From an uncultured Spirochaetota bacterium (lineage in GTDB: Bacteria; Spirochaetota; UBA4802; UBA5550), in contig CAWHAA010000005.1 of NCBI GenBank assembly GCA_963827275.1, forward strand, positions 288,001-352,000: DNA of 64,000 nucleotides, given 5' to 3'. The notes under the pieces are model-generated. The model ran no database searches. It saw only the letters and a list, made by a program, of their open reading frames with translations, and was not told where the DNA came from. The position numbers were made by a program, and so were the translations under genes. Below are positions 2,092 to 30,092 of the stretch, in pieces. Each line of letters begins with the position of its first letter. Positions within the stretch are counted from its first letter, which is position 1.

Positions 2092-2187
2092 ATAGGTCTT
2101 ACCCTTGAAATATGGTAAAACTGACAGACCCTGATTCATCCCCATTTTTTTTAATGATTGCATATAATATCCCCTCCAAGATGCATC

Positions 2188-2286: not shown

Positions 2287-3240
2287 TTATCTATTTTTAA
2301 TAAAGTAGCGAAATTGCGTGGGCTCAAGAACATCATCCTCTGGATTCCACGGATCTTGATGATATCGTATATTCCCACCTGAGGCAATCCAGTCTTTTCC
2401 ATCCCTTTGCAATATTATTCCAGATATAACTATCAAGACTGAATATCCAGTATTATTGCGGGCATGTTGTAATTCACCATTTGTTAATAACACACTATCA
2501 CCATTGCCGGTGGTTCCTTTCACCTCAATAAATCTTTTCTCATTATTTTTTATAGCTAATAAATCATAAGACTGAGTTGATGACATATCTTCTATTACCC
2601 AACCTAATTCTTTGTATTTTGAAATTGCCACTTGCATTGCTCTTAATTCAACAGCCTTACGCTGAGGCTGGGACAGGCCAAATCCTTGCCCATCAGAAAA
2701 ACCCACTTGATTGACATTAGTTTTTGTAGACATAGGAAAACCCAGTTTTTCATGTAGTGCTTTCTCGTTTAATGGAAGGATAGAGAGTTGCGCCTTCAAT
2801 CCATCTGGGGTTAGTGAGCATTTTTTTATTTCTTGAACCGAAGGCGGATTATCAAGGATCTGAAAATTCTCAATGGAAGCAACGTATGACATTACATCTG
2901 TTTGAGTTACTACAGGATTTGCAAATTCATATGCGCATGAACCGCATTTCCATTTAGGAGTTTTTTTTATTCTTTCTCGAATATCAGTAGAGTTGCAATC
3001 TTGATTCGGACACCGGCGATGAGTTTTAATATCTTGAGATTTATTAATATCTCCCACTTCGCCCAACCCGATTATTTTATCATCCTTGCGGACTACTACT
3101 ACATCTCCAGAACCAAGGCTTTTATGGTTAGGGACTAAGCTGTCATAATGATATTCTTCTCCGGTTTTGTCACTATAACTATCTATACCTTGAGATATTC
3201 GAGTCTTGTCAGATTTTTCGAGAATTAACCAACAGGCCAT
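2287..3240 (-). CDS. DUF3883 (PD-(D/E)xK) nuclease with zinc ribbon and putative PUA/SRA-like N-terminus
   Basis: C-terminal YDLLA..RFIEVKGTT..LTNGE; Cys pairs CPNQDC and CGSC. Confidence 0.7.
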   Translation of the reverse strand: MACWLILEKSDKTRISQGIDSYSDKTGEEYHYDSLVPNHKSLGSGDVVVVRKDDKIIGLGEVGDINKSQDIKTHRRCPNQDCNSTDIRERIKKTPKWKCGSCAYEFANPVVTQTDVMSYVASIENFQILDNPPSVQEIKKCSLTPDGLKAQLSILPLNEKALHEKLGFPMSTKTNVNQVGFSDGQGFGLSQPQRKAVELRAMQVAISKYKELGWVIEDMSSTQSYDLLAIKNNEKRFIEVKGTTGNGDSVLLTNGELQHARNNTGYSVLIVISGIILQRDGKDWIASGGNIRYHQDPWNPEDDVLEPTQFRYFIKNR

Positions 3241-3262
3241 AGGTCCCTCGATAAAAAACGTC

Positions 3263-3664
3263 TTATATCTTAGCCTTAATTTTTGAAAAAATGGTCATCA
3301 TTTTTTTTTTGCCAATTTCACATTCCCAAATTCTATAAACAACCCAGCCATCTCTTTTAAGCTTCCTATTAACGGTTCTGTCTCTATTTTTGTTAGCGGA
3401 TATCTTTCTTTCCCAAAATTCCATGTTTGATTCTGGTATCTTTGCACATTTGTGCCCATGCCAGAAACATCCGTCGACAAACAGAGCAATCTTCTTTTGG
3501 GGGAATACGAAATCGGGCTTGCCAAATATTTTAAATTTTCTTCGCCAACCGATAACTTTTTCTTGTCGTAGATGAAGTATTATTTTTAGTTCGGTACTTT
3601 TATTTCCACTTCCCCGGATACGTGACATGTTCCAAGAGCGGTGTTCGCTGGAAAGACGATCCAT
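3263..3664 (-). CDS. vsr: very short patch repair endonuclease
   Basis: [40 protein letters not shown]; start overlaps the upstream stop. Confidence 0.95.
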   Translation of the reverse strand: MDRLSSEHRSWNMSRIRGSGNKSTELKIILHLRQEKVIGWRRKFKIFGKPDFVFPQKKIALFVDGCFWHGHKCAKIPESNMEFWERKISANKNRDRTVNRKLKRDGWVVYRIWECEIGKKKMMTIFSKIKAKI

Positions 3665-4419
3665 CAGATGACCTTGGCACGTTTCCATCTCGCCATGGCC
3701 GGGTCGAGGTGGTCAGTAAAAAAATCCTCAAATGATAGAATGTTGGGTGCTGATGAATAAACGGTGTTGCCATTCATTATTTTTTCAGGAACAACCAGAT
3801 ATATCCGGTTATTAAGCATCTCTTTTGATTGCTTTTCTGATACTCCCTCGTCAATGGTTGCCAAAAATAGCCCCTTGCCTTTAACACCTTCTGTGGCAAT
3901 TTGACGCCACCTTTCCCTCAATGTTCTTTTTGCTGTGAAAATAATACAGTCCGGGGCATTTTTATTGTAATGGTCTTTCGATGGTAATAGAAAATCAGGT
4001 TTTCCGTTTATTATACACTGTTCCTCAAAAGGATAATCAAGATTACGGAAAAGTGTTCTGATTATTGTTTCGAATGTCTTTCCCGCTCTTGCTTTTCTAC
4101 TCTGAGACAGGGACATGAAAAATTCATTAAGAGCTGGGAAAATAGCTTTATCCTGTTTTTCATCAAGATAATTCTTGATGACTTTTTCTCCGATCTTTTT
4201 TTCATAATTCAAGTATATCTGGTAACACTCATCACCCATATCCTGAACAATTTTGCTAAACTTTTCCTTCAGATCTTTTTTTGAATACCCTTTGTTGAGT
4301 ATTGCATCCATGCCACGTTTTGCAACAGTTTCAAGATTAGGCACTAACTTTTGGAAATCATCAAACATTTTCATACTATCAACCAGCCTTGTTCCTGATT
4401 CTTTTATCATCTCCAACAA
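3664..4419 (-). CDS. type II restriction endonuclease, EcoRII-C/SsoII-like
   Basis: [28 protein letters not shown] motifs. Confidence 0.85.
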
Positions 4420-5389
4420 GTTTTTGCTGTTTTAATGAATCCAGTACAGATTCCGCTATCTTTTCTACAACTTTGACAACAACAGCATTCCCAAATTGTC
4501 TATAGGCTTGGGTATCTGATACTGGAATTTTAAATGTATCAGGAAACCCCATAAGACGAGCGCATTCTCTCGGGGTGAGACGTCTGGGATTTTTCCCTTT
4601 TTGTCTGATTAGAATTTCTGATCCATCTTTGTAATAACGAGCACTCAATGTTCTTGTAACATCATTAGGGCCGACCAAACCGAATCCAAAACCATTACCC
4701 TTTTCGGCATGTTTTTTTGCATAATCTTGAAGATATTTCCAAAGGTGATCTGAAAGCGTATATTTCTTATCGACCTTATGTTCAAGTATTGAGCCGAGCT
4801 TCGGCCCGGATGGATCCATTTCCGGGAATTCATATAAGAGGGGGCGGTCGAATCCGACAATGAATATTCGTTCTCTATGCTGTGGAGTAACGCTTTTCGC
4901 ATCGATTACTTTATAGTACACCGTATAGCCAAGCTTTTCTGTAAGCGTTTTGTAAATGATATTAAATGTCCGCCCCTTATCATGAGTGATAAGATTCTTA
5001 ACATTTTCAAGTACAAAAGCACTTGGGCGGAGGTCTTTTATTATCCGGGCTAATTCAAAAAAAAGATTACCTTGTTTCTCATCGTCGAATCCGTGCTTAC
5101 GCCCAAGGCTGTTTTTCTTCGAAACACCAGCTATGCTGAATGGTTGACATGGGAATCCGGCGCATAAAATATCAAAAGATGGAATGTCGGAACTTTTAAC
5201 GGAATGTATATCCCCGACAGGTTTTTCGACAAAATTTGATTCGTATGTAATTTGCGAGTACTTGTCCCAATCACAGGAAAATACACATTCGCCACCAAAT
5301 TTCTCAAATGCAAGTCGGAACCCACCTATCCCGCAAAAAAGATCTATAAAGCGGAATGTATCACGAATGTGTTTTGTCGCTCTTCTCAT
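4379..5389 (-). CDS. dcm: DNA (cytosine-5) methyltransferase, Dcm/M.EcoRII-like
   Basis: [58 protein letters not shown]. Confidence 0.93.
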
Positions 5390-6558: not shown

Positions 6559-9356
6559 ATGGATATTAGTATTCAAGAAATTGAAATTGCTTATAGAAAA
6601 TTAAAATCATACTTTTATTACGACAATACTTCACATTATTTTCGCAAGGCATTGGCGGAATTTGAGTCAAAAGATGGTTTTGAAAATAGATTATCTAACT
6701 TATGTGAATTTTTGAATAATTATAATAGTGTTGATTCACAAAACTATTTTTCTGAAATCGTTGAAAGAATCTCCTTTATTAGTCTACCAAAACGAATTAG
6801 TTATAAAAATCATGATTATGTTATTTCTAATCAAGTTGAAGATTCAAAATACACTATTGATAAATTGACATTCTTAATTGATGCACCAATTGAAGTGCAT
6901 ATTATATCTGTATTGTGGATTTTAAAGATTGGCGTGCAAGTTGCCTACTAATTATAAAACATATTTATACGGCAATAGAATTCAATTTAATTATAATTCC
7001 AATGAAGTTAAATCAGGATTACAATTATTTAAACCATATTATAAACAATATCAAAATTGGCGAAATAATGGACTTAGGAGTATTGAAAATTGTTTAGATA
7101 ATAATATAAATGTCGCCATGTTATTGCTGGACGTTAAAAATTATTACCACTCAGTAAAATTTTCATTTAATAAATTTAATGATTCCATTAATAATCTTAA
7201 TATTGAGAAAAGCTTTTTGCTACTTAATAAGTTATTATATGAAATTCATTATTCTTATACAAAAATAATCAACATACATACTGACGAAAAACACAATGAT
7301 GGCACCACTATATTACCAATAGGTTTATTATCATCAGGTATTTTGGCGGATTGGTATCTAAATGATTTTGATGAAAAAACGATAGCTCAAATCAAACCAT
7401 TATATTACGGTAGATATGTTGACGATGTTTTAATTGTCATAGAAAGCCCGAATATTGATAAGCAAAAAGATGATTTACTCGATGAGTTTCTTACAGATTA
7501 TTTTATTATAAAAAATGAAATCTTAACAAAGAAAGGAAATAAAGTTTATAAGATAAATAACTACCGAGGATTAGAAATACAAAAAGATAAAATAAAACTA
7601 TATCTATTAGATGCTAATGCTTCGAAAGCTGGTTTGAAAAAATTTGAAAACACCATCCGTAGGAATAGTAGTGAATTCCGTTTTTTACCTGATGAAGATG
7701 AAGTAAATGCAAATTTTGATGAAGAAGCTTATTCGATTATTTATTCTGATTCAATAAATAAACTACGAAGTGTCGAGGGTTTGGTGCACGATAAATATAA
7801 TATTTTTAGTAATAAATAACAATAGGAGGGCTTTTGGTTTTTTTATAAAAGAAGTTAATTCTCAAATAGATAAAATAAAAATTGCAAGTCCCGAGCTTGA
7901 GAAACGTACGATTTACTTTTTAAAAGATTATTTAACTATATCAGCATCAATTCCAATCTCACTTAATTTGTCATTTGCCGACGATCTCTTGTTTGATTGC
8001 TCAGTTTGGATTCATTATTGGAATATTCAAAATCTATAAGAATTTCCAATTTATTTAGACATAATTATGTTTACTATCCTCTATTTAACTTCACAGACAT
8101 GAGTTACAATTATTCAATAAATCTTTTAGATAAAGATATCAATAATTATCCATTTGTTAGATCATCGAATTATGGCATAACACATAATCATATAAAATAT
8201 ACACCTCGATTTGTTCATCTATATGAAGTTCAATTATATTTGATGTATTATAATTTGATTATCACTAAAATCAATAATGATAAAAATGATTTCAGTGAAT
8301 ATATCAATGAAAAACATTTATCAGAAATAACTATTGAATTATATTCAAATATTAACTACGGACGAGGAGATACTGATGAAAGAGAATATACATGATGGGT
8401 TTGGTTTTAAACAGAAAATCTTGAAACAGATTCCAGAGAGACAGGATGATGAAGAAATCGGTATTCGGATTGTTGAGCATTATTTTGAATTTGAAGAAAA
8501 AGAAAAGAAGTCAATAAGGGTGGGAATAGCAAACCTTAAAATAAATCATGATGATAGTTTAGATAATATTAAAAATCCTAATTTATCTTTTAGCAAGAAA
8601 CAAAAACTATGGAAACTATTGAATTTAATGGAAAGAGAGGATTGTGATCTATTTGTATTACCGGAACTATCTATTCCACATGAATGGCTTCAAAATTTAG
8701 CTAAATTTTCAGACGAAAATCAAAAAGCTATTATTTTTGGATTAGAACATTTCAAAGACAAATATAATCGAGTTTATAATTTAATTGTAACAATATTGCC
8801 ATTCAAAATATTTGGTTATAAAGCATCATATATTAGATATCGTTTAAAAAACCATTACTCGCCAGAAGAAAAAAGACAGTTAATAAACTTAGGGTATAGA
8901 ATACCAATACCATTGGTATATTGTTATGATTTATTTTCATGGAATGGGGTGTCTTTTTCGTGCTACAATTGTTTTGAATTCACAGATATAAATCATAGGA
9001 GTTTGTTTAAATCTGACGTGGATTTTATCGTTGCTGTAGAATATAATAAAGATATAAATTATTTTTCAAATATTGTTGAATCGATTGCAAGAGATATTCA
9101 TTGTTATGTTATTCAAGTCAATAATTCCTGTTGGGGTGATTCGCGCATAACTCAACCATCACCAACTGAAATAAAAGATATAATAAAAATAAAAGGTGGC
9201 GAAAATAGTGCTATTTTAATAGGCGTTATTGATATAGATAAACTTAGAAATTTTCAAATACAAGATTATGAAACACAAAGAAATGATGAAAACTTCAAAC
9301 CCACACCACCAGATTTTGATCAAGATAATGTGAGAAGACGCATGGGCCTTCTGTGA
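6559..9356 (+). pseudogene. reverse transcriptase-nitrilase fusion (UG1/DRT1-like), split over five overlapping ORFs
   Basis: RT motifs LDVKNYYHS, LPIGLLSSGILADWYL, YGRYVDD; nitrilase triad PELSIP, LKNHYSPEE, YNCFEF. Confidence 0.85.
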
Positions 9357-9755
9357 TAAAGTTATAATTGTGATGGATTTTAGTGATATTCCACTAAAAT
9401 AAGTTATAATTTTCTTTATAATACAGAATGAATATCTTTTGTAAAATAACAAACAAATTTATAACTAATCCATTGTAATAGATTTATCACTTATCAAAAA
9501 TATTTTTTAAAAAATAATCAATTGGCTTGTTATATAATTTCGCAAATCGCATCAACTCCACCACATCAACCCGCCGCTCACCAGATTCACATTTTGAAAT
9601 ATACGATTGGGATTGTTTCAGCTTTTTGGCAATGGCCAACTGAGTAAAGCCGGACTCTTCACGGGCTTTTCTGAGGTTCTGATCCCACCCCTTAAATTTG
9701 TACCACGAGATAGTTTAGTTTTAACCGATAAATAATCAAGACTAATGAGGTTAAA

Positions 9756-10028
9756 ATGAAAAAACGATTCTCAGAAGAGCAGATTGTCAGGATCCTCGGT
9801 GAGCATAAGGCGGGAAAAAAGGTAAAGGATATCGCCCGAGAACACGGCATTAGTGAGAACTCCTTTTATATCTGGAAGCGCAAATATGGAGATATGAGCT
9901 CTCAGGAAATTGTTCGATTGCGACTACTTGAAGATGAAAATACACGATTAAAGAAACTGGTTGCCGATTTATCCCTGGATAACATGGCACAGAAGGAGAT
10001 CATAAAAAAGTTCTGCGACCCGGAGTGA
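9756..10028 (+). CDS. IS3 transposase OrfA
   Basis: MKKRFSEEQIVRIL, LEDENTRLKKLVADL; AAAAAAG slippery-type motif at 10004-10010. Confidence 0.9.
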   Translation: MKKRFSEEQIVRILGEHKAGKKVKDIAREHGISENSFYIWKRKYGDMSSQEIVRLRLLEDENTRLKKLVADLSLDNMAQKEIIKKFCDPE

Positions 10029-10768
10029 AGAGAGAGGCAGTAAGCTATCTGATGAGTAGCTTCGGGTTTTCGATACGACGATCATGCAAGGTTTCCTGTA
10101 TGGCTCGTTCTACATTCTCATATAGTCCGCAGCCAAATGATGACGCACGAATCATTGGAGAGATAGATTCGATCCTTTCAAAAAATTCAAAATATGGCTG
10201 CGGAATGATACAGCTCAAGCTGAGGCAAAAAGGGATACTGATTAATCATAAGCGTACAGAAAGGATATATAAAGAGCATGGGCTGCAATTACGAGCGCGG
10301 AAACGTCGGAAAAAGATAGCTTCATTAGAACGATCACCCGTTGAATTGCCGAATGAACCTGGCGTCATATGGGCTTTAGATTTCATTCATGACTCGGTGG
10401 GCTTTAAAAAGAATCTCAAAATACTGACAGCGATTGACCCTGTAACGAATCATTCGCCACTTATTCATACTGGATTTTCAATAACGGGTAAGGATGTTTC
10501 TGAACTACTTGAAAGAGCATGTGAATCCTTTGGGTATCCAGAATTTATACAATGTGACAATGGTCCTGAATTTAGAAGCCAGGAACTCGACCGTTGGTGC
10601 TATGAAAAGGGGATTAAAATAATTTTCACAAGGCCCGGCAAGCCATCAGATAATTGCCACATAGAAAGTTTTAATGGAACATTTCGGAATGAATGTCTCA
10701 GTGCTCATTATTTTAAAAAACTGAGTACAGCCAGAGAGATTATTCATGAATGGTGGGAGAGAATATAA
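10025..10768 (+). CDS. IS3 transposase OrfB (DDE); C-terminus frameshifted near 10757
   Basis: WALDF, CDNGPEF, IESFNGTFRNECL; YNEERPQKRLKGMTP continues in another frame. Confidence 0.88.
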   Translation: MKREAVSYLMSSFGFSIRRSCKVSCMARSTFSYSPQPNDDARIIGEIDSILSKNSKYGCGMIQLKLRQKGILINHKRTERIYKEHGLQLRARKRRKKIASLERSPVELPNEPGVIWALDFIHDSVGFKKNLKILTAIDPVTNHSPLIHTGFSITGKDVSELLERACESFGYPEFIQCDNGPEFRSQELDRWCYEKGIKIIFTRPGKPSDNCHIESFNGTFRNECLSAHYFKKLSTAREIIHEWWERI

Positions 10769-12373: not shown

Positions 12374-13415
12374 TCATTCCACAAGAAAGTTTTTCAATCC
12401 CGCCAAATAAGCCGAAGTTACAAGCACGGATGTATGCCCAAGTATTACTGAGAGCTGGTGGATATCTTTTGTTCTGTTGTAGAAATCGATTGCAAATCGA
12501 TGCCGAATTCAATGAGGCGAGTACTTCGTCTCTAATTTACCTCCCATCTCATCCTGAATCCTCCAGAGCCACATCGAGAAAGCACTGCCCGAGTAATCCT
12601 TGAATGGTTCCCGCCCTACAAGATTATATGATTTAAGGATAGCAAGAGTATCCTCATCAAAACGTCCATTGATCTCTTTCCCTTTTGACATTGCCCTGAA
12701 GTTGCCATCACGGTCTATTTTTAGAGAATTCAGGGAACCAACACGTAATCCGTATTTACGCAATATTCTCAAAGCACAAAGGGCTTTGATGTTTCCGTTA
12801 AGCTTCTTGAGTTGGCCACGGCCTGATACTTGTTGGGCTTCCTCTATCTGTTGTAGGGCATAGTTTTCAATACAGATCGAGTTCTTCATTCGAAGGGATT
12901 TGTTCAGCCTCTTTGATTGCGATTTTCTTTTTTGGGAGACCCTTGGCTCTTCTGAAAGGGTTCTTGAAAATAATCTCCCAACGTTCCAAGTCAGAAAAGA
13001 ATGAACTCGGAGAAGCAATTCGCTGGCGTTTGGTATTGCTTGAAAGCCTTTTATTGGAATTGAGATAAGCTATGTACTTATCGACAATGAGAGCATCAAC
13101 ATCTATGAGGGATGTGCCATTGAGCCATGTGAGGAAATAATTCAGATTTGCCTTGAAGCTCCGTATGGTGTGCTTGGATTGGAAACCTGATAACCATTGG
13201 TTCACAAGATCATCAACACCCTTTTTATCCAGCTTGGCTTTTTTAACTTCTCTACCGAACTCATTTTTTAGAGAGTCAATATAATATGCCTTGGCTATCT
13301 GCTGGATCTGCTTATCAGATAAGTCTGCTAGCTCAGGAGAGTCTAATATCTTCTGTATGGAGTCATTAATTCTTGTCGCTATCTCTTTCTTGGTATCATC
13401 ATTAATGGGGGTCAT
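12374..13415 (-). pseudogene. tyrosine recombinase/integrase with a frameshift near 12870 and an in-frame TGA at 12509-12511
   Basis: YGLRVGSL (R), SPH*IRHRFA (HxxR), LGHTSVLVTSAY (H, Y). Confidence 0.85.
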
Positions 13416-15805: not shown

Positions 15806-16261
15806 ATGAATATGTATGATTTTATTTTAACTAATGCTCGTTTAGAAGAAAAAATAAACCAAACAAGGCTTAAACTTGAGGAAAGTGCGTCCTCATTGGG
15901 TTCAATGGTTGAATTGTGCAAACCTGTGGTTGATCTTTTCCACAAGAATTTGCCTGACGAAATTAATCCATTAAAAAATACAGATTCAAGAATACCATTT
16001 TCCAAAGCTTTCATAATGGCGCGAATCATTCATTTAATAGGAACAGTAGAATTAAATGATGCTCTTATTGAAAGCATGGAGAATTGTGATGAAACAGAAC
16101 TGTATTATTTTCATTTCATGTGTGAAACTGAAGAAAGAAAAAAAATAATAATAAAGTCACATTTAGATTTTTTCCAAAAACATACGAATAATAATAACGA
16201 AAAAACTAAAAAAACTAAAAAATCAACAGGAGAAAATTATGGAAAAGCAAATATTAATTAA
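15806..16261 (+). CDS. hypothetical protein
   Basis: 151-aa ORF with AGGAG RBS. Confidence 0.6.
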   Translation: MNMYDFILTNARLEEKINQTRLKLEESASSLGSMVELCKPVVDLFHKNLPDEINPLKNTDSRIPFSKAFIMARIIHLIGTVELNDALIESMENCDETELYYFHFMCETEERKKIIIKSHLDFFQKHTNNNNEKTKKTKKSTGENYGKANIN

Positions 16262-16592
16262 TTATGAAATATTAGGCAAATATCAGGATGAATTAGGGAA
16301 CTTCGAGCCTGATGAATTGGAAAAATTGCTGAATAATTATAAAGCACTTTCAGAGTTTCAGGATGAGCTTGGAATGTATGAAACTGAAGAACTAAAAGAA
16401 GTGGTGAATAATTATATGACTCTTGAGAAACTTCAGGCTGATTTGGGATTGTGGGAGGCAGATGAACTAAAAGAAATGATTGGAGACCTTGATACTCTTG
16501 GCCAACTTCAGGATGATCTGGGAATTTGCGATACGGATGATCTTAAAAAGCATATCTCATTATTAACAGAGCTGAGGGAAATTGAAGCCTGA
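16239..16592 (+). CDS. acidic protein of four 25-aa repeats
   Basis: Repeat unit approximately NYxxLxxxQDELGxxExDELKxxxx; AGGAG RBS. Confidence 0.7.
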   Translation: MEKQILINYEILGKYQDELGNFEPDELEKLLNNYKALSEFQDELGMYETEELKEVVNNYMTLEKLQADLGLWEADELKEMIGDLDTLGQLQDDLGICDTDDLKKHISLLTELREIEA

Positions 16593-17768: not shown

Positions 17769-19847
17769 GTGAAGCATATAGATATTAAACAACTCCAGAA
17801 ACATCTTGTAATAAAAGGGTTGGCTGGAACAAGAAAAACAGCATTATTAATCGCCATAGCTATACAGGCTGTATCTAAGGGAATGAAGGTTCTTTATCTC
17901 ACTTTTAATAAAAAAATACGTTTTGAGGTGATAGAAAGATCAAAATTAAGCAAAACCAAAGTACATACGTTCCACAGTTTTGCCTATAAGGAAATTATTC
18001 AAACGGACTTTCTAAATGATATTTTCAAAGACTTTTCGGTAGATGAACTAACTCAATATTTCGATGAGGATTATAAATATTTCTCATCAAAATCCAGTAA
18101 ACCTAAAGATTTATCCCAAAAGACATTGAGTGAACTTATTAGATGGTGGTGTGACTATTGTGAAAATAGTACTCAAACCAAGTATGATTTAATTATAGTA
18201 GATGAGTTTCAAGATTTGAATCCCAGTATGTTTAGGATGTTGAAAAAACTCTATATGATTAATAAGAAAAATGATGTTAAGATAATAGTAGCCGGAGATC
18301 CTTACCAAACGATATATCACTATCTGAATGGTTCAGATTCATCTGAGAATTACTTCAATACTTTTGGTAAATATTTTGGTGAATTTGAGACAATACATTT
18401 AGATCAATGTTATAGATGTTCTCCTGCAATACAGAGATTTGTTAATGGGTTCTACAGAAAACAATATATAAATTACAGGCAATTTGATTTAAATGGATAT
18501 CAAACCTCTGATTATTCGGAAGATGTATTTATTCATTTAATTCAGCACAGAAGATTAGTTAATGAAAAAGTATCTGAGATATGTAATCAATATCAGGGCA
18601 TAAAAATTAAAATTCTGGCACGTGTAAATAGAGAATTATCTCCATTTTCTGATTTAATTGCCAAGAATGATCTAATACAAACTTCTACTATTCACTCTGA
18701 AAAGGGCAATGAATGTGATGTTGTAATAATAGTTAATACCATATTTAATGATAAAATATCCTCTGAGGAAGACAAAAATCTGTGGAATGTAGCCATTACC
18801 AGAGGAAAGAAAACGGTGCATATTGTTTCCTCTTTTCCCAGCGAGAAGATATTGGATTTATTTGAAGCAGGAACTTATACTTTAATTTCCGAACAACATG
18901 ATCTATCTAATTCTACCATGGAAGACATTCCCCAAGAAACAATAAATTTAACTCCAGACAAGGTTAGAGAGTCATTGATTGATTCTGTGGAAGTCCAATT
19001 GGATTATGAGGATGCTCCATTTATTCCATATGAACAGCAGAATCTTAAAAAGAAATCTCGTTATATGACCAATACAAGGATCAAAGGTAAAAATATTGAT
19101 CTTGTACTTAATCAGGTCAAAGGAAAATTAAATTTCGAATATCTTGATTTAAACCAGTTGAAAAACCAAGGTTTTACTGATATACAAATTGTATCTTATA
19201 TTCTTGAGACCCAGAAAGAATACTTCAATTACAAGATTTCTGATGAAGAATTACTTTCACAAAAATTAAGAAGATTAGATCTGGCTAAATATTATGAGGT
19301 CTCTGGAACAGAAATATTGGATTATTTATCAATGGTATTAAAATTATCTAAATATTCTGACTCAGATAAAAAGACAAATTATTGTGGAGAGGAAGTTAAA
19401 ACAATTTATTTAAATTCTTCAAAGGCAAAAGAAAGAGGAATTAGGATTTATTTCCCCAAGTACAAAACTATTAATTCTTTAAATACTGATAAAAATATTA
19501 TTAAAGTTGAACTTTACAGAATTAGGAAATTGGGGATTAAAAAATTAGGATTATCAATTAAGAATGTTGGAGATTTATTAAGGTTTATAGATAATAATGA
19601 ATTAGAAAAACTTTATGATGAATGGATGAAATATGAATTTACATCTTTAACTGGTAAAGAAGTAAAGAATATTGAATTATTGAAGAAAAGAAGAAATATT
19701 TCAAGTTTGGAAGATTTAAGAGATTTAATTGATAGAGGTAATATTAAAATTAAAGATAAAAGAATTTATTATCATATTCTATTATCATTTATAAATGAAA
19801 GAGAAAGGAGGGAGATAGAGGAAATAGTTGGAAGTAAAAAAAGGTAA
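17769..19847 (+). CDS. UvrD/SF1 helicase with ~300-aa C-terminal extension (possibly Rep_trans-like)
   Basis: GLAGTRKT, TFN, TFHSF, DEFQD, GDPYQTIY, CYRCS, TIHSEKGNE, NVAITRGK. Confidence 0.85.
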   Translation: MKHIDIKQLQKHLVIKGLAGTRKTALLIAIAIQAVSKGMKVLYLTFNKKIRFEVIERSKLSKTKVHTFHSFAYKEIIQTDFLNDIFKDFSVDELTQYFDEDYKYFSSKSSKPKDLSQKTLSELIRWWCDYCENSTQTKYDLIIVDEFQDLNPSMFRMLKKLYMINKKNDVKIIVAGDPYQTIYHYLNGSDSSENYFNTFGKYFGEFETIHLDQCYRCSPAIQRFVNGFYRKQYINYRQFDLNGYQTSDYSEDVFIHLIQHRRLVNEKVSEICNQYQGIKIKILARVNRELSPFSDLIAKNDLIQTSTIHSEKGNECDVVIIVNTIFNDKISSEEDKNLWNVAITRGKKTVHIVSSFPSEKILDLFEAGTYTLISEQHDLSNSTMEDIPQETINLTPDKVRESLIDSVEVQLDYEDAPFIPYEQQNLKKKSRYMTNTRIKGKNIDLVLNQVKGKLNFEYLDLNQLKNQGFTDIQIVSYILETQKEYFNYKISDEELLSQKLRRLDLAKYYEVSGTEILDYLSMVLKLSKYSDSDKKTNYCGEEVKTIYLNSSKAKERGIRIYFPKYKTINSLNTDKNIIKVELYRIRKLGIKKLGLSIKNVGDLLRFIDNNELEKLYDEWMKYEFTSLTGKEVKNIELLKKRRNISSLEDLRDLIDRGNIKIKDKRIYYHILLSFINERERREIEEIVGSKKR

Positions 19848-20507: not shown

Positions 20508-20581
20508 AAATTTTAAGCCTCTGTCCAGTACTTTTTGTGCGGGGGGCTTAATCTAAGAGGAAGTAATTGCTGAAAAAATGC
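20508..20581 (-). repeat. ~75-bp hairpin-forming repeat, copy 1 (inverted relative to copies 2 and 3)
   Basis: Reverse complement aligns to 22977-23053. Confidence 0.8.
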
Positions 20582-21035
20582 ATTCATTAACATGGGCCTT
20601 TACTTCTGAGGATGTAATTTCCTAAAAAGTTAAACTATCACGTGGCACAAATTTGGGGGTGGGATCACTTTAATAAACTTAATTGGTTCTCTATACATAT
20701 TCTGGATATTACAAATTTATTCATGCTTGATTGCGAACCAATTCATCATACAAGTCTATACACTAAATTTTCCCGTTGGTTATATTGTCATGTGCAGATA
20801 TTTCTTGACATTAGTCTTCTAATATTATGTATTATAAATAAGAAATTCCATCTGGGTGGGATGTGACTATTATAATTAACATATATCTATTATCTATGAA
20901 TGCATGAGAAGCTCTGATCTGGTTTTAATTCGAGTAGCACAAAGTATTTATTCCTTAGAAATGTATCTGCCTACACTCATATATTGGCATACATAAAAAG
21001 GCTGAACAATCACAATCAAAAGGAGACCAAATAAT

Positions 21036-21980: not shown

Positions 21981-22034
21981 AACCCCTCTCAAGTGAAGCC
22001 TCCTCCAGCAGAAAAAGCGCTGGACAGAGGCTTA
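21981..22034 (+). repeat. hairpin-forming repeat, copy 2 (partial)
   Basis: AAGCCTCCTCCAGCAGAAAAAGCGCTGGACAGAGGCTT. Confidence 0.75.
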
Positions 22035-22898: not shown

Positions 22899-22976
22899 CT
22901 GAAACAACTTACTGATTTTTATATTTTACTTTCTAGGAATCTGCCCACTCATCGGTGCCGGCCGAGGGGACACAAA

Positions 22977-23053
22977 GCATTTTATCAGCAATTACTTCCT
23001 CTTAAATTAAGCCCCCTCCGGCAGAAAAAGCGCTGAACAGAGGCTTAAAATTT
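22977..23053 (+). repeat. ~75-bp hairpin-forming repeat, copy 3
   Basis: See copy 1; overlaps the stop of the Lgt-like gene. Confidence 0.8.
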
Positions 23054-25475: not shown

Positions 25476-25724
25476 TTACTGTATGGTGACGTCACCCTGA
25501 GTTAAACGAATTATCTCTTTTTGAACATTAGCTTTTAAATCATCACTACTTTTTTTTAGATTCTTGATTGTGATATAATAAGCCAACAATCGCTCAATTG
25601 GGATAGACCAATCTGCAAAATCGTTTATATCCTTGATAAAAGACTCATATAGCTTTATCCTCTTTTCTTTAAAGCTTGAAAACAATGCCAAGATCTCAAT
25701 ATTTGAAAAAGCTTTTTCTTCCAT
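25476..25724 (-). CDS. hypothetical protein
   Basis: 82-aa ORF with GGAGG RBS. Confidence 0.6.
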   Translation of the reverse strand: MEEKAFSNIEILALFSSFKEKRIKLYESFIKDINDFADWSIPIERLLAYYITIKNLKKSSDDLKANVQKEIIRLTQGDVTIQ

Positions 25725-25820
25725 AAATAACCTCCATGATTAACTACTATAGGTGTATACGAATGAGAAGTCAAAATGACATAAAATATTTTTAAAAATT
25801 AAATTATTTTAAGAATAAAT

Positions 25821-26545
25821 TTACTTTTTGTTTATGGCAATTAAATCCCATAGCCTTTTAGCTATTTCTTGTCCTAGTGCTTCAATCGATTTCTTCGACA
25901 TATCGACCGTCATTTCTCCTACTGATTCATCTGGTTCTTGACCGTTATCTGCTTTCATCAGTTGATCAATAATAGAAAAGTTATCATCAGAGAAATCAAT
26001 CCTGATGGTGTCGGGGAGGGCATTAAATGCTTCTAATATCTTGGAGTTGTTGTATTTGTTACATACTCTTGCTGGTAGAGCCATGTCTTCCCTGTAGTGC
26101 TTCATGTAAACATCTCGTTTCAATAAAAGATAATTAGGTGTACTTTTTTCAATAACATCGTCGTGATTATAAAAAGCCCATCTTCCTGTATTGTAAAATG
26201 CTTGGGGTCTTTTGGTATTATTCCAATACACTCCAATTGAAACTCATAGTCATAGAGGATCGTACAAATGCCGTTGCACTTATCTCTGTTCTCACATACA
26301 ACTATGGATATAAATTTATTGATATCGACAACCGATTCACCATCAATCTCCAATAATGTTCCTCTTAAATTATAGACCAGCTTAATTATTCTTAAAAATG
26401 ACCTGTTGCATTCATAAGCTAAAATGGATATGGCGTTTCCTGTTTCCGTATATGTTTTTGGAAAATTTATCTTTGCTAACTGGATAGCCTCAGGAAGCTT
26501 TACGGACTTACTTTTTGAATTGAATGTTAATCTATATGTAATCAT
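25821..26545 (-). CDS. hypothetical Cys-containing protein, probably one frameshifted gene
   Basis: Overlapping ORFs 26120-26545 (has AAGGAG RBS) and 25821-26231. Confidence 0.45.
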
Positions 26546-26577
26546 AGGAATCTCCTTAAAATAATAGTCGTGAATAT

Positions 26578-27216
26578 TTATTGCTTAGCCCATCGATTCA
26601 CTTTTCTTTGGTTCTGATAAATACAGGAACCCCATGAAATATAACCGGACATCTTATTTAGCTTGTCGTGATTTGATCTGTATACCAGAAGCCAGTATTC
26701 CTCATCATCAACAGATGTTTCTCTATTCTTGCCTTGATTGAATTTTTTTCTGGCATTTGCAATAAGATGACCCCAGCCATAATTAGCTCTTCTTTCATTT
26801 TTATAACTCATTGGAATCCTTTTTGTTATATCCACCGCCTGTTCAATAGCCTTGAATTTCCATACCAAACAGGGGAAAATATCCCGAGAGAAATCATCGA
26901 GATTAACCTTCTCACAATTGGAATATTCACAAATACCCCAAAGATATACGGGGTCATAACGCTTATGTAATTTCATTATCTGGTAAGCAATTAATGCATC
27001 CCACTCGCCATTACTTTCGCCAGTATCTGGATGATCATTGAAACGATATCTTATCTTATTGATAGCCCGATTACAGCATTTAACCCACGTATACATTCCT
27101 ACAGGGTCAAAGGTTTCATTATGGCCGTAGTTATAATCTCTTTTCCTATTTCTAATTCGATCCAATAGATTCCGTATCCACCAAGGTGAGAACTCAGAGA
27201 CTTTCATTGTATTCAT
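26578..27216 (-). CDS. basic, Trp-rich hypothetical protein coupled to the transposase operon
   Basis: GGAGG RBS; ATGA overlap with the upstream ORF stop; 212 aa. Confidence 0.7.
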   Translation of the reverse strand: MNTMKVSEFSPWWIRNLLDRIRNRKRDYNYGHNETFDPVGMYTWVKCCNRAINKIRYRFNDHPDTGESNGEWDALIAYQIMKLHKRYDPVYLWGICEYSNCEKVNLDDFSRDIFPCLVWKFKAIEQAVDITKRIPMSYKNERRANYGWGHLIANARKKFNQGKNRETSVDDEEYWLLVYRSNHDKLNKMSGYISWGSCIYQNQRKVNRWAKQ

Positions 27217-27509
27217 TTCTTTAACCTCCGTAATGAGTATCCTTGCACCTTCCCACGTTGCTCGATGATTGTTGCACATAATTCAATTATTTCATGCTCA
27301 CTCAAATGACGGCATAGATACTTCAGGTCTTTATCTACGAGATAAAAGTTATCAAGAGTGAAGCGGTTAGCCTTTTTATGCGGATCTCGCAACTCCACTT
27401 CGCAATTCAATGGGGTTAATTCTCTACTTGTCAAAGCACAGCACCTCCCTTGTTGTTCTAATAATTGCCAGAAATGTTCAGCGGTGAATTTAAAGGCTTC
27501 ATCTGTCAT
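27213..27509 (-). CDS. small degenerate HNH-like protein
   Basis: LLEQQGRCCALTSREL...DNFYLV pattern; start overlaps the transposase 3' end. Confidence 0.6.
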   Translation of the reverse strand: MTDEAFKFTAEHFWQLLEQQGRCCALTSRELTPLNCEVELRDPHKKANRFTLDNFYLVDKDLKYLCRHLSEHEIIELCATIIEQRGKVQGYSLRRLKK

Positions 27510-29238
27510 ACCCTTTCTCCTTTATTATTTTTTTCCGTTTATCTTTTGACATACCATATTTTGGTTGTCTGGGTTTCTTGGGTGCTTCTACTTGTTTTAT
27601 AAACTTGGTGATATCTGATAGTTCAGATAGTTCGTTCTTGTCGTAGGTGTAGAGGATATCGGGCAAAATCGGAATAAGCCTTTTCAGTTGATAATTAACA
27701 TCCCCCTTACCTTTCTTATTAACTTCCACGACATCTGCAATACCAAGCATTGCCCATATACGAACCACTCGAAGTGCTTTCTTTTTATTTATAGTTCCAG
27801 CATTGCATACGGTATTTAACGAGCGATGTTCACGATCAGCCAGAAATGAAAATAATCTGTGGGCTAAAGAATTGTATTCAGACTCACTCTGTCTTCTTTC
27901 TCTATTTTCCTCATCCCAATAGAACAGGTAATCCTCAACCGCCTGTTTGAGGGGATAATATTCATTCCGGTCTAATATGAATTTTAATCTTTTGGGGATT
28001 TGTTTTCTGGTCTTACTGAAGATCCCATGAACACGATTATCAGGTGTTGGAAGGTTATAAAGACATTCATTGATTTTTGCTTTTAAAGACCATTTTTCAG
28101 TTTTATCTGGTGACTTGTCCGTGCATATAGCTCTCTCACTATCCCCACACAGCTCCCCTACCCTCATCTCAACCAACCGATCCATCCCAAACAACCTCAA
28201 CCCCTTCAAGGCACACCACTCATCCAGATACAGTTGAGAATACTCTGGCCTGATATACCCATACCCAGCCAGAAAGGAATGCTTCAATACACGTTGGAAC
28301 CCTTCTGCCGTCTGACTATGGACTCCCTTACAGCTCCATCTCTCTCTACTCCAGACATTCCTCTTCAAATCCTTTGCCCGTTTCGAGTGGTTTACTGACC
28401 GATGATTGTCATTATATCGCTTCAACCACGGATAACCGGCATCAGAAAATATCGGAGCATGCTCAGGCAAGAAATCCAGTAAGGGCATAATCGTTCTTTG
28501 TCTTTGATCAGGAATAGAATCAAATATGACTGGCCCTTTCTTTATCCCAATCGTGGAAACCAATGTCCCGATCTGGTACTTACCCTTCTCCAGAGCCACA
28601 GAATCGGACAGGTAGATGCTGGAGGTCTGGCCGTTGTGCTTGTACCGTGCTCTGTAGCCATTAGAGCCTTTTCTAGCTGAAAACAGGGCAACTGTATCCA
28701 TTGATACTACCGGTTTGCTCTGGATTAATCCTGAGAGGTCTGAAGCGGTATCCTTGGGGAATCTAAAGCCTTCTGGGAACTCCTTCTGGATCTCCTCTGT
28801 CATGATCTGTTTAATAACGGGGATAAACTCCCTCAGGAATAACTGTAACCGCCTCTTGAGTAAGGTGGCGGTGTTGTTGGAACATTGGAGTCTTCTTTGT
28901 ATACTTGAGGCTGTCAGGACTTGAGGATGGATGTTGAGAGCTTCTGTTAGGATATATGAGAATGTCCAGAGCGGAAGTCTGAGATTGTGCAATGGGGTTT
29001 GGGAAGTACGTGATCCTTGGTAATAGCACTGGGGACAACGGATTGCATTTTCTCTGGTCGCTATTTCATTAGTAAGTCTTGTTTGGCAATGGGGACAGTA
29101 CTTGGGATAAGTGGAGTTAAGGATCTGTTTGGTTAGTTGGGTGTAATATTGGATGTTGATCTGGGGGAATCTTGTTGAGAATTGGGTCTTGGCATTTTGG
29201 TGAAAATGTATAGGTTGTGGGGAGTGTGAAGGAGAGAT
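27499..29238 (-). CDS. IS1595-like DDE transposase, right copy: open frame with zinc ribbon, DDE core and ~208-aa C-terminal extension, but no native start
   Basis: Manual translation is open from 29238 (ISPSHSPQ...YCPHCQ...RCPQCY) into the 497-aa ORF; no ATG/GTG/TTG upstream of 28992 before a stop in antisense comM. Confidence 0.88.
   Translation of the reverse strand: MSPSHSPQPIHFHQNAKTQFSTRFPQINIQYYTQLTKQILNSTYPKYCPHCQTRLTNEIATRENAIRCPQCYYQGSRTSQTPLHNLRLPLWTFSYILTEALNIHPQVLTASSIQRRLQCSNNTATLLKRRLQLFLREFIPVIKQIMTEEIQKEFPEGFRFPKDTASDLSGLIQSKPVVSMDTVALFSARKGSNGYRARYKHNGQTSSIYLSDSVALEKGKYQIGTLVSTIGIKKGPVIFDSIPDQRQRTIMPLLDFLPEHAPIFSDAGYPWLKRYNDNHRSVNHSKRAKDLKRNVWSRERWSCKGVHSQTAEGFQRVLKHSFLAGYGYIRPEYSQLYLDEWCALKGLRLFGMDRLVEMRVGELCGDSERAICTDKSPDKTEKWSLKAKINECLYNLPTPDNRVHGIFSKTRKQIPKRLKFILDRNEYYPLKQAVEDYLFYWDEENRERRQSESEYNSLAHRLFSFLADREHRSLNTVCNAGTINKKKALRVVRIWAMLGIADVVEVNKKGKGDVNYQLKRLIPILPDILYTYDKNELSELSDITKFIKQVEAPKKPRQPKYGMSKDKRKKIIKEKGYDR
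28127..29238. repeat. right terminal direct repeat (1112 bp)
   Basis: Copy of 979-2091. Confidence 0.93.
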
Positions 29239-29717
29239 GCCGGTGCGGCTACCTCTTCGACAAGGAGATCCCCTGCGTGTGCCCGCCGTACCAGGTCAAG
29301 GGCCATTTCCAGAAGATATCGGGCCCGATACTCGACCGGATCGACATCGAGGTGCTGGTCGGACGCGTACCATACCATGACCTGATGTCCGGCGGGTCGT
29401 ATGAAGGTTCGGCGGCCATCAAGGAACGGGTCATGGCCGCCCGCGAGATACAGGAACAGCGCTTCAAGGCAAGCCCGACCAGGTACAACGCGCGCATGAC
29501 CCAGGAGGAGATCAAGAAGCACTGCCGGTTCACGCCGGAAGCCGAGGAGGTGCTTGCCCTTGCCGTGAAGCGGACAAATCTCACCGCCCGCTCTTTTTTC
29601 AAGATCCTGAAAACCTGTCGCACCATTGCGGACCTGGGCGGAGCGGAAATGATCCAGAAGGGGCACATTCTTGAGGCGCTCTCATATAAGAATTTGCAGA
29701 GAAATTACGATGTATGA
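29239..29717 (+). pseudogene. comM: comM/YifB, 3' part (begins with the right TSD copy)
   Basis: CRCGYL, KISGPILDRIDI, SAAIKERVMAAREIQ, ARSFFKILKTCRTIADL, HILEALSY. Confidence 0.95.
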
Positions 29718-29879
29718 CCGGGTATGCCGGCAGCGTCCATGAAAAATAAAAAATCAGCCCGCAGAGAGACCGGCAGTTGATATTATTCGAATCCTGATGT
29801 ATATTGGGTGTACCATTATCTGCAGGAAAGAAAATTGCGGCTGGAACGAGAAAAAAGGAAAGATATCGAGGAGCAAGCC

Positions 29880-30092
29880 CGTTCTTGTTTTTTTGATGAC
29901 GGCGACAGGATAGAGGTCATGACCGAAGACGCGCCGGCACGGTTCCTGCTTATTTCGGGAAAACCGATCGGAGAGCCGGTCGCATGGAGCGGGCCGATTG
30001 TCATGAACACGCAGGAAGAGCCCAGGATTGCTTTCGAAGAATATCGGAACGGGACTTTTATCAGGCATGGACCTCCGGAATTGTTCTTGTAA
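29880..30092 (+). pseudogene. pirin C-terminal fragment
   Basis: RFLLISGKPIGEPVAWSGPIVMNT; N-terminal cupin domain absent. Confidence 0.7.

Follow-up and report, generated by a model that had tools for sequence, protein, structure and literature searches.

How could a 28-kb island have come to lie within comM when neither of its two transposase copies holds a whole transposase gene? This question is raised by the stretch of DNA studied here (the window), 64,000 nucleotides from an uncultured Spirochaetota bacterium (assembly GCA_963827275.1, contig CAWHAA010000005.1, positions 288,001 to 352,000 of the forward strand), whose own numbering is used throughout. An earlier note on this DNA drew attention to the right end of the island, where a C-terminal extension of the transposase is followed by two overlapping small genes, and proposed that the three products form a targeting or processing machine. 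In this report, we conclude with high confidence that the three genes are a conserved unit, located at the end of the island between two copies of the transposase core. We propose that the island travels as a circle, that it integrates replicatively with copying of the core, and that a 212-residue protein encoded by the last of the three genes provides the aim. We place the probability of this whole reading at about 0.62. The system is real and conserved, and it is apparently undescribed.

A transposase gene wider than its repeats

The island (979-29238) has a low GC content and is inserted within comM, a YifB/Mg-chelatase-like gene (Pfam PF01078/PF13541) on the plus strand. The 5′ part of this target gene occupies 1-978 and the 3′ part 29247-29717, and the two halves form one open frame once the island and one target-site duplication are removed. 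The duplication is 8 bp long, with its left copy (GCCGGTGC) at 971-978 and its right copy at 29239-29246. Each end of the island is formed by a minus-strand copy of the transposase core, of 1113 bp at the left (979-2091) and 1112 bp at the right (28127-29238). These copies differ by a single base, and the terminal inverted repeats of the core are imperfect, matching at 17 of 24 bp. No second duplication is seen at the inner core flanks in the window, and a genome search found no further core copy elsewhere in the source genome. The core runs AT...AT from end to end; with a further outward AT in each inner flank, the inner junctions at 2090-2093 and 28125-28128 become ATAT. Such inner junctions are present in most relatives, the exceptions being G043 and some Leptospira elements. 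Digester metagenome contigs from one study (runs X1-X4) contain a relative that is ~93% alike over 26000-30000 and has the same three genes; in three of the runs it is joined to comM at the window's junction.

The central point of this report, absent from the earlier note, is that the inverted-repeat ends of the core fall within the transposase gene. Both copies encode a zinc finger, a helix-turn-helix (HTH) and the D178-D263-E309 triad. The right copy belongs to a reading frame that remains open between 29229 and its stop at 27499. Outside the core, this frame encodes an extension of 209 codons (27499-28126), which starts exactly at the inner end of the copy and is followed by the partner genes. 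There is no ATG, GTG or TTG ahead of the zinc finger in this copy. The left copy, which encodes the zinc finger, the HTH and the DDE domain without the extension, is the one that bears a start: the 5′ end of the gene runs beyond the core (2092-2177, minus strand), and its ATG, preceded by GGAGG, lies at 2163, beyond the inner end of that copy. Thus, neither copy holds the whole gene, and only one core placed between both cargo flanks would do so. A promoter-like site near this start (2217-2188) did not rise above chance.

The same division of the gene is found in relatives. In 22 of 22 core pairs, spaced 16 to 67 kb apart, an in-frame start lies in the cargo ahead of the short copy, and the frame of the other copy continues for 165-222 codons past the core. 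The cores were 99.9-100% identical in all of the first 11 pairs and 99.0-100% identical in 10 of 11 further Leptospira candidate pairs, the last standing at 72%; over both sets, identity is 99% or more in 21 of the 22 pairs. Cores of different elements, compared in two genomes, share 66-86% (15/15 comparisons), and 78-86% within one array.

The enzyme contains the Pfam domain DDE_Tnp_IS1595 (32.7 bits, cut-off 27) and scores below the cut-off of NCBIfam NF033547 (22.3 bits against 75), and thus belongs to a divergent IS1595 branch. The D, D and E residues are invariant in 21/21 homologues, as are the four cysteines of the N-terminal zinc finger, which is a feature of the IS1595 family. We take the enzyme to be related to IS1 as well. 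In the extension, residues ~450-520 (~27670-27882) are modelled as a winged helix, and the top structural matches of the model are winged HTH domains (VIA Z 6.4-6.7, all below 8; Foldseek E > 0.1); against Zalpha, Z is 6.4 with a root-mean-square deviation of 1.5 over 60 residues. The peptide that had earlier been called winged-helix-like by eye lies within this predicted domain, and the scores are supportive of that assignment rather than decisive. Winged helices bind DNA. A chance fusion of the extension with an interrupted cargo gene was considered and rejected: homologues of the extension are in frame at 26-64% identity, and the inner flanks carry no duplication.

Two coupled partner genes

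The two genes behind the extension are also on the minus strand. The first (27213-27509) encodes a 98-residue protein and overlaps the transposase stop by 11 nt (27499-27509). The second (26578-27216) starts at 27216 in an ATGA overlap (27213-27216), with GGAGG upstream, and encodes the 212-residue protein; the tight coupling described in the earlier note is therefore correct. Gene order and overlaps (-4/-11/0 nt) recur in relatives at 29-66% identity, which argues that the arrangement is not a product of chance.

A core match was found in 10 of 101 related genomes, and of 24 Leptospira genomes sampled, 23 contain the core. When each species was represented by a single genome, a scan yielded 40 transposase loci, all but two of them in records titled as spirochaetes or as their relatives ("bacterium bin.39"), and one on an Elusimicrobia contig. 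Seventeen of these loci bear the extension. All 17 have the HNH-like gene for the 98-residue protein directly behind it, and 14 have an intact third gene; of the other three, one is frameshifted, one is cut by a contig end and one has a longer second gene. No match to the HNH-like gene was found at the 23 core-only loci. Co-occurrence with homologous transposases was the point on which the three-protein proposal had been staked beforehand, and it is borne out. Further, ten metagenome contigs with the HNH-like gene have the extension upstream (9/10) and a third-gene match downstream (10/10), and in a separate Leptospira set both partners are present at 15 of 16 extension-bearing copies, the sixteenth being decayed. 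Because some loci are near-copies, these counts are not independent. Among viral contigs, no relative was found with either query.

The 98-residue protein is a candidate adaptor with an HNH fold. Its first match in the ESM Atlas scores 0.96, its best family-bearing matches fall into one clan (10/10), and weak Pfam HNH matches are obtained for 2 of 16 homologues. If the HNH motif positions are assigned as we assume, the first His is Leu in the window protein and is lost in 10 and kept in 11 of 21 homologues, whereas the last His/Asn position, the second metal ligand, is lost in all 21. Metal-binding residues are thus missing from the window protein. The central Asn is retained in 21/21. An HNH-like protein lacking catalytic His and Asn had been claimed; the fold and the loss of the first His and the last ligand hold up, and the loss of the central Asn does not. 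A search for fused, longer forms among 6353 candidates found none, which is weak evidence, and sequence searches of the PDB with the profiles of both partners gave no informative match.

The 212-residue protein is basic, as had been stated, and is predicted to be all-helical. It has no family match in Pfam, NCBIfam, PADLOC or the PDB, and no match over 0.84 in the ESM Atlas. Its own family comprises 78 clusters at 50% identity, the longest member having at most 247 residues, and is marked by seven Trp-anchored repeats of the form W-x9-K-L, spaced 20-30 residues apart. Lys or Arg at +10 together with a hydrophobic residue at +11 occurs in 52% of 651 Trp-anchored windows from 80 family members, compared with 5% (maximum 7%) in 200 shuffles, and the seven distinct Trp columns are 76-97% conserved.

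When the HNH-fold protein and the 212-residue protein were modelled as a pair, the score was 0.60, against 0.02 for the best of three controls; partner pLDDT (predicted local distance difference test) was at least 84, and the runs shared at least 60% of contacts. In a benchmark, the 0.60 level was reached by 18 of 157 solved complexes and also by both of the two mismatches that passed. This one prediction weakly suggests a physical complex of the module proteins. Of the three-protein machine envisaged earlier, then, the conserved three-gene unit is upheld, and the physical association of its products is weakly hinted at by the model of one pair.

Fixed target sites

Within each class of target gene (named by Pfam), insertions occupy the same 8-bp position. 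In comM, targeted in five genomes and in both orientations, the site corresponds to the NPCxCG codons. Other elements lie in the last codons of MBOAT genes (7 sites), in uvrD (3), at the ends of flagellar-rod genes (4), PilZ genes (5) and a lipoprotein-like gene (3), and in tetR (2). Single cases are radC, a response-regulator/kinase gene, a membrane-protein gene and a hypothetical gene. At many sites the host gene survives whole; those interrupted are comM, uvrD, tetR and radC. The target sites differ at wobble positions. At L110:596 (G148:C16), the first base of the core supplies the end of the upstream host gene's stop codon, and that gene is thereby left whole. An RNA guide was considered and rejected: the longest target match was within the shuffle range in 7/7 elements, and there was no Rfam match.

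To which component do these sites correspond? We compared targets across 21 complete modules by means of quick trees; one row, L043, contains a frameshifted third protein. Among 17 elements, the nearest neighbour shared the target in 14 cases for the core, 15 for the extension, 14 for the HNH-fold protein and 16 for the third protein. An element whose target was then unassigned grouped with the PilZ elements and was later found at a PilZ site, and a hand recount that includes it gives 15/18, 17/18, 17/18 and 18/18, respectively. Two discordances are informative. The core of L108, which occupies a flagellar-rod site, is 87-89% identical to cores of PilZ-site elements and 64% to that of the other rod-site element, and its extension behaves similarly (54-58% to PilZ elements, 43% to the same-target element); its third protein, by contrast, is 42% identical to the rod-site one and 22-28% to the PilZ ones. 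In the window, the core is nearest to that of a uvrD-site element (56%) and groups away from other comM cores, whereas the third protein is nearest to that of the other comM element (42%, next 27%) and groups with G043 at a support of 97-99. The extension tree also places the two comM elements together (support 95). This tracking of the target in sequence comparisons is suggestive of the third protein as the chooser, and it lends indirect support to the targeting role that had been proposed for the module.

Arrays, scars and possible circles

Two long-contig genomes contain head-to-tail arrays, of four and three complete elements, with the same 8-mer between them. Every element of an array is bounded by two cores of its own, and unlike neighbours are separated by a new 8-bp duplication. 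Solo cores with a duplication are found in comM of G027, a one-contig genome, and in radC and uvrD of G022, and runs of up to three solo cores stand between array elements.

Intact transposase genes with cargo-type flanks on both sides are present in two metagenome contigs (L078 and L079; 604 and 608 aa). A third intact transposase gene (645 aa), followed by both partners, spans the two ends of KF114878.1, a record of 47 kb that was submitted as a Leptospira phage. Such circle-type contigs could be true circles or collapsed repeats. Besides two tyrosine recombinases, KF114878.1 (L100:25821-28100) encodes a family B DNA polymerase, and none of its genes is annotated as a virion gene; we presume that it may be a pipolin-like replicon moved by this transposase. 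The accessible portion of PMC4758666, Table 4 included, does not mention KF114878. Replication and tyrosine-recombinase genes are among the cargo of G043, KF114878.1 and NZ_CP043881.1.

A proposed cycle and its alternatives

We propose a cycle that begins with a plasmid-like circle carrying one core and an intact gene. From one operon would come the full transposase (zinc finger, HTH, DDE domain and winged helix), a nuclease-dead HNH-fold protein and the repeat protein. The repeat protein would read a conserved coding motif of the target gene, and the HNH-fold protein would bridge it to the extension of the transposase. The two core ends would next be linked to target positions lying 8 bp from each other, and replication would yield the order target-core-cargo-core-target. 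Integration would part the start codon from the extension and the partners; with the start and the extension-partner block at opposite ends, targeted integration would be off. Recombination between the identical cores would release the circle and leave a solo core as a scar, and the site would remain usable, so that arrays could accumulate. Replicative cointegration with subsequent resolution is established for other transposons. We regard the circle-cointegrate cycle as probable, and we lean, on the strength of sequence comparisons, toward the 212-residue protein as the target selector.

Several observations weigh against this cycle or against parts of it. No free circle or transposition event was seen in the data examined, assembler collapse of a 1.1-kb repeat can yield circle-type contigs, and the KF114878.1 record carries the label linear. 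Neither a replication gene nor a recombinase gene was found in the 56 open reading frames (ORFs) of the tandem MBOAT-site elements that were scanned; the cargo scan omitted 12 of 95 ORFs (inverted-repeat duplicates, one methyltransferase and two short ORFs). The window's start-bearing core copy is frameshifted relative to its own start by one additional base at 1962, a position at which four related contig sets agree with the right copy. An in-core GTG or TTG (never ATG) precedes the zinc finger in 10 of 22 extension copies, and flanking DNA supplies an upstream in-frame start in 4 of 22, so some extension copies could be translated in place. The L106/L107 pair has matching duplications and cores only 72% alike; with a PilZ-type module and flanks (G148:C11) and a first core whose 5′ part resembles tetR-site cores, this pair is likely a recombinant between element types. 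Four extension copies (L039, L042, L048 and L057) lack a partner core in the DNA examined, and we infer that they are decayed older insertions. As for target choice, the argument relies on the two discordances of L108 and the window, the kin that track the target are not independent, the extension and the HNH-fold protein do nearly as well (17/18), and the MBOAT group requires two changes in the third-protein tree. The predicted structure of the 212-residue protein has a pTM (predicted template-modelling score) of 0.23.

The extension's performance raises the possibility that the same cointegrate cycle is at work and that the target is read by the winged helix of the transposase, with the partners processing the intermediate or serving in regulation. 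Consistent with this are the 17/18 score of the extension, its grouping of the two comM elements, the fact that winged helices bind DNA, and the retention of the first HNH His in 11/21 homologues. However, in L108, the cleanest discordance, the extension follows the core and the third protein alone follows the target, and the last HNH ligand is lost throughout (21/21). We therefore view an extension that reads the target as unlikely.

A different origin for the layout would be an ordinary pseudo-compound transposon moved by its outer ends, in which the start-bearing copy is a complete DDE enzyme, the extension and partners are expressed separately by way of an internal start, and nothing depends on the joined gene. 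The short copy does possess the zinc finger and a full D-D-E triad, one element has unlike cores between matching duplications, and pseudo-compound transposons of the IS1595 family exist, according to the accessible part of PMC12561309. Such a transposon accords poorly with 21/22 pairs at 99% identity or more, against 78-86% between elements of one array, with a frame that continues across the inner end in 22/22, and with the finding of intact genes and of neither an in-core ATG nor a conserved internal start; we deem it improbable. It is also conceivable that a circle enters a resident core by homologous or conservative recombination, in the manner of IS26 translocatable units, and that the specificity goes back to earlier insertions. 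Target sites often hold solo cores, and this route is described for IS-bounded units in the same portion of PMC12561309. Every array element, however, arrives with a separate pair of cores and with a new 8-bp duplication where unlike neighbours meet, and the presence of unlike cores at the same base in comM, uvrD and rod genes across genomes would be left unexplained, making entry by recombination very improbable. Thus, we continue to favour replicative integration of a circle aimed by the 212-residue protein.

Relation to described elements

Published systems are compared here as they appear in the accessible portions of the papers cited. With the IS1595 family, ISApl4 and Tn7560 (PMC12561309), the island shares the DDE_Tnp_IS1595 domain, terminal inverted repeats and an 8-bp duplication, and with Tn7560 it further shares two direct copies around cargo and a proposed one-copy circle. 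ISApl4 is 712 bp long, has its whole gene inside and occupies 39 places in one genome (PMC12561309). The window-type gene, in contrast, extends past the core on either side, specifies a predicted winged-helix extension, is coupled to two partner genes, and is associated with fixed gene motifs. In none of the 22 pairs does the gene lie between the inverted repeats, as it does in IS1595 elements; two direct copies surround the cargo, as in a pseudo-compound transposon, but each copy is not a complete insertion sequence. IS6/IS26 elements form cointegrates by copying of the element. We infer that direct repeats arise likewise here from element copying and that resolution is by recombination. IS26 differs in having another transposase family and complete copies without selector proteins; the translocatable unit is defined in PMC12561309.

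Tn6022/TnsF and Tsy (PMC10293859) share with the island comM targeting and, in our proposed reading, a dedicated selector and the reuse of an inactivated enzyme fold in targeting. The comM site of the window, however, is at the NPCxCG codons and not at the Walker B motif, and the family has at least nine target genes. Neither TnsB, TnsC, TniQ/TnsD nor TnsF was found among 26 island ORFs (Pfam) or 12 proteins (NCBIfam). The archaeal "suicidal" integrases of SSV1, pTN3 and pT26-2 (PMC8371274) have the recombination site in their own gene, which is parted on integration. Those are tyrosine recombinases and are described as exclusively archaeal (PMC8371274), whereas the window enzyme is a bacterial DDE protein whose catalytic core is duplicated and not cut. 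In TnGBS and other Mutator-like DDE integrative and conjugative elements (PMC3942029), too, a DDE enzyme moves a large replicating element that has preferred sites and makes 8-9-bp duplications. Their inverted repeats enclose the entire element and are brought together in the circle; those of the island enclose the core alone. In Leptospira interrogans, the island LaiGI I is reported to excise as a replicating circle (PMC4140679, PMC1936430), and the accessible parts of these papers mention no IS1595 repeats. An IS1595 transposase is merely listed in a Leptospira island in the corresponding part of PMC12457778.

Given a gene that is not inside its repeats, the lack of Tn7 proteins and the DDE nature of the enzyme, we place the system outside the IS26-type, Tn6022/TnsF and suicidal-integrase classes. 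No published description of this layout was found in the literature searched, mostly open-access main texts. More tentatively, and with the odds against it, the 212-residue protein might be a new modular DNA reader in which each of seven helical repeats specifies part of the target, so that it could be re-aimed by repeat change. The module would then be a three-protein DDE machine that places 16-67-kb circles at any of numerous genes. It would amount to a compact integrase programmed by protein, with no relation to Tn7, and to the first DDE equivalent in bacteria of the suicidal integrases of archaea.

Other contents of the island and its relatives

The cargo of the window includes restriction-modification genes, a broken reverse transcriptase-nitrilase gene, a tyrosine recombinase and a helicase. 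Genes for Vsr, an EcoRII-like endonuclease, a C5 methyltransferase and a NO VEIN-C domain protein lie at 2287-5389 (minus strand), and the UG5 reverse transcriptase-nitrilase defence gene, in four frames, at 6559-9356 (plus). The tyrosine recombinase, in two frames, is at 12509-13415 (minus) and has a 42-45% homologue in a second element. A UvrD-like helicase fusion at 17769-19847 (plus) may be a replication gene. Three small ORFs downstream of the module (141, 136 and 82 aa; 25476-26545, minus) each recur in one relative only. The split genes of the window (reverse transcriptase-nitrilase, recombinase and left core) may reflect long-read indel errors or decay. An IS3-like two-ORF element, assigned to its family by eye, occupies 9689-10768, and 34 nt of it recur in inverted orientation at 20626-20659. 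Further repeats, some inverted and some direct, at 20508-20634, 21985-22034 and 22924-23053 resemble element remnants. An acidic 117-aa protein with three 25-residue repeats, spaced by 75 nt, is encoded at 16239-16592.

Among the relatives, L101 (NZ_CP043881.1, 72,780-108,110) forms a complete element of 35 kb within a replicon of L. interrogans; its cargo is annotated in the record as a CyRepA1-family Rep, a recombinase and the defence-like genes TIR, reverse transcriptase, NadE/NUDIX and Abi. Several of the tandem MBOAT-site elements (L043/L050, L041/L047, L047/L042 and L051/L052) have a 0.6-2.4-kb inverted duplication with arms 97.8-100% identical. The duplicated block, which lies beside the start-bearing core, contains DprA, DUF6908 and SNase genes, and an inverted scrap of the 5′ end of the core is often included. 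No relaxase or mating-pore gene was found among the ORFs scanned, although small or uncharacterised ORFs could still encode them.

Implications

To our knowledge, it is mainly in Tn7-like elements that DDE transposition is known to be steered by dedicated protein selectors. If the proposed reading is true, the family described here would be an independent solution, derived from an enzyme that we take to be IS1-related; its selector would belong to no known family and would have been redirected to at least nine genes. The reading would also account for islands and scars that are common and unrecognised in Leptospira, where their pieces are annotated as "transposase" or "hypothetical", and it would add to the known ways in which elements inactivate comM and radC. 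Further, it would provide a testable self-off switch, and a small system capable of taking tens of kilobases to a chosen site.

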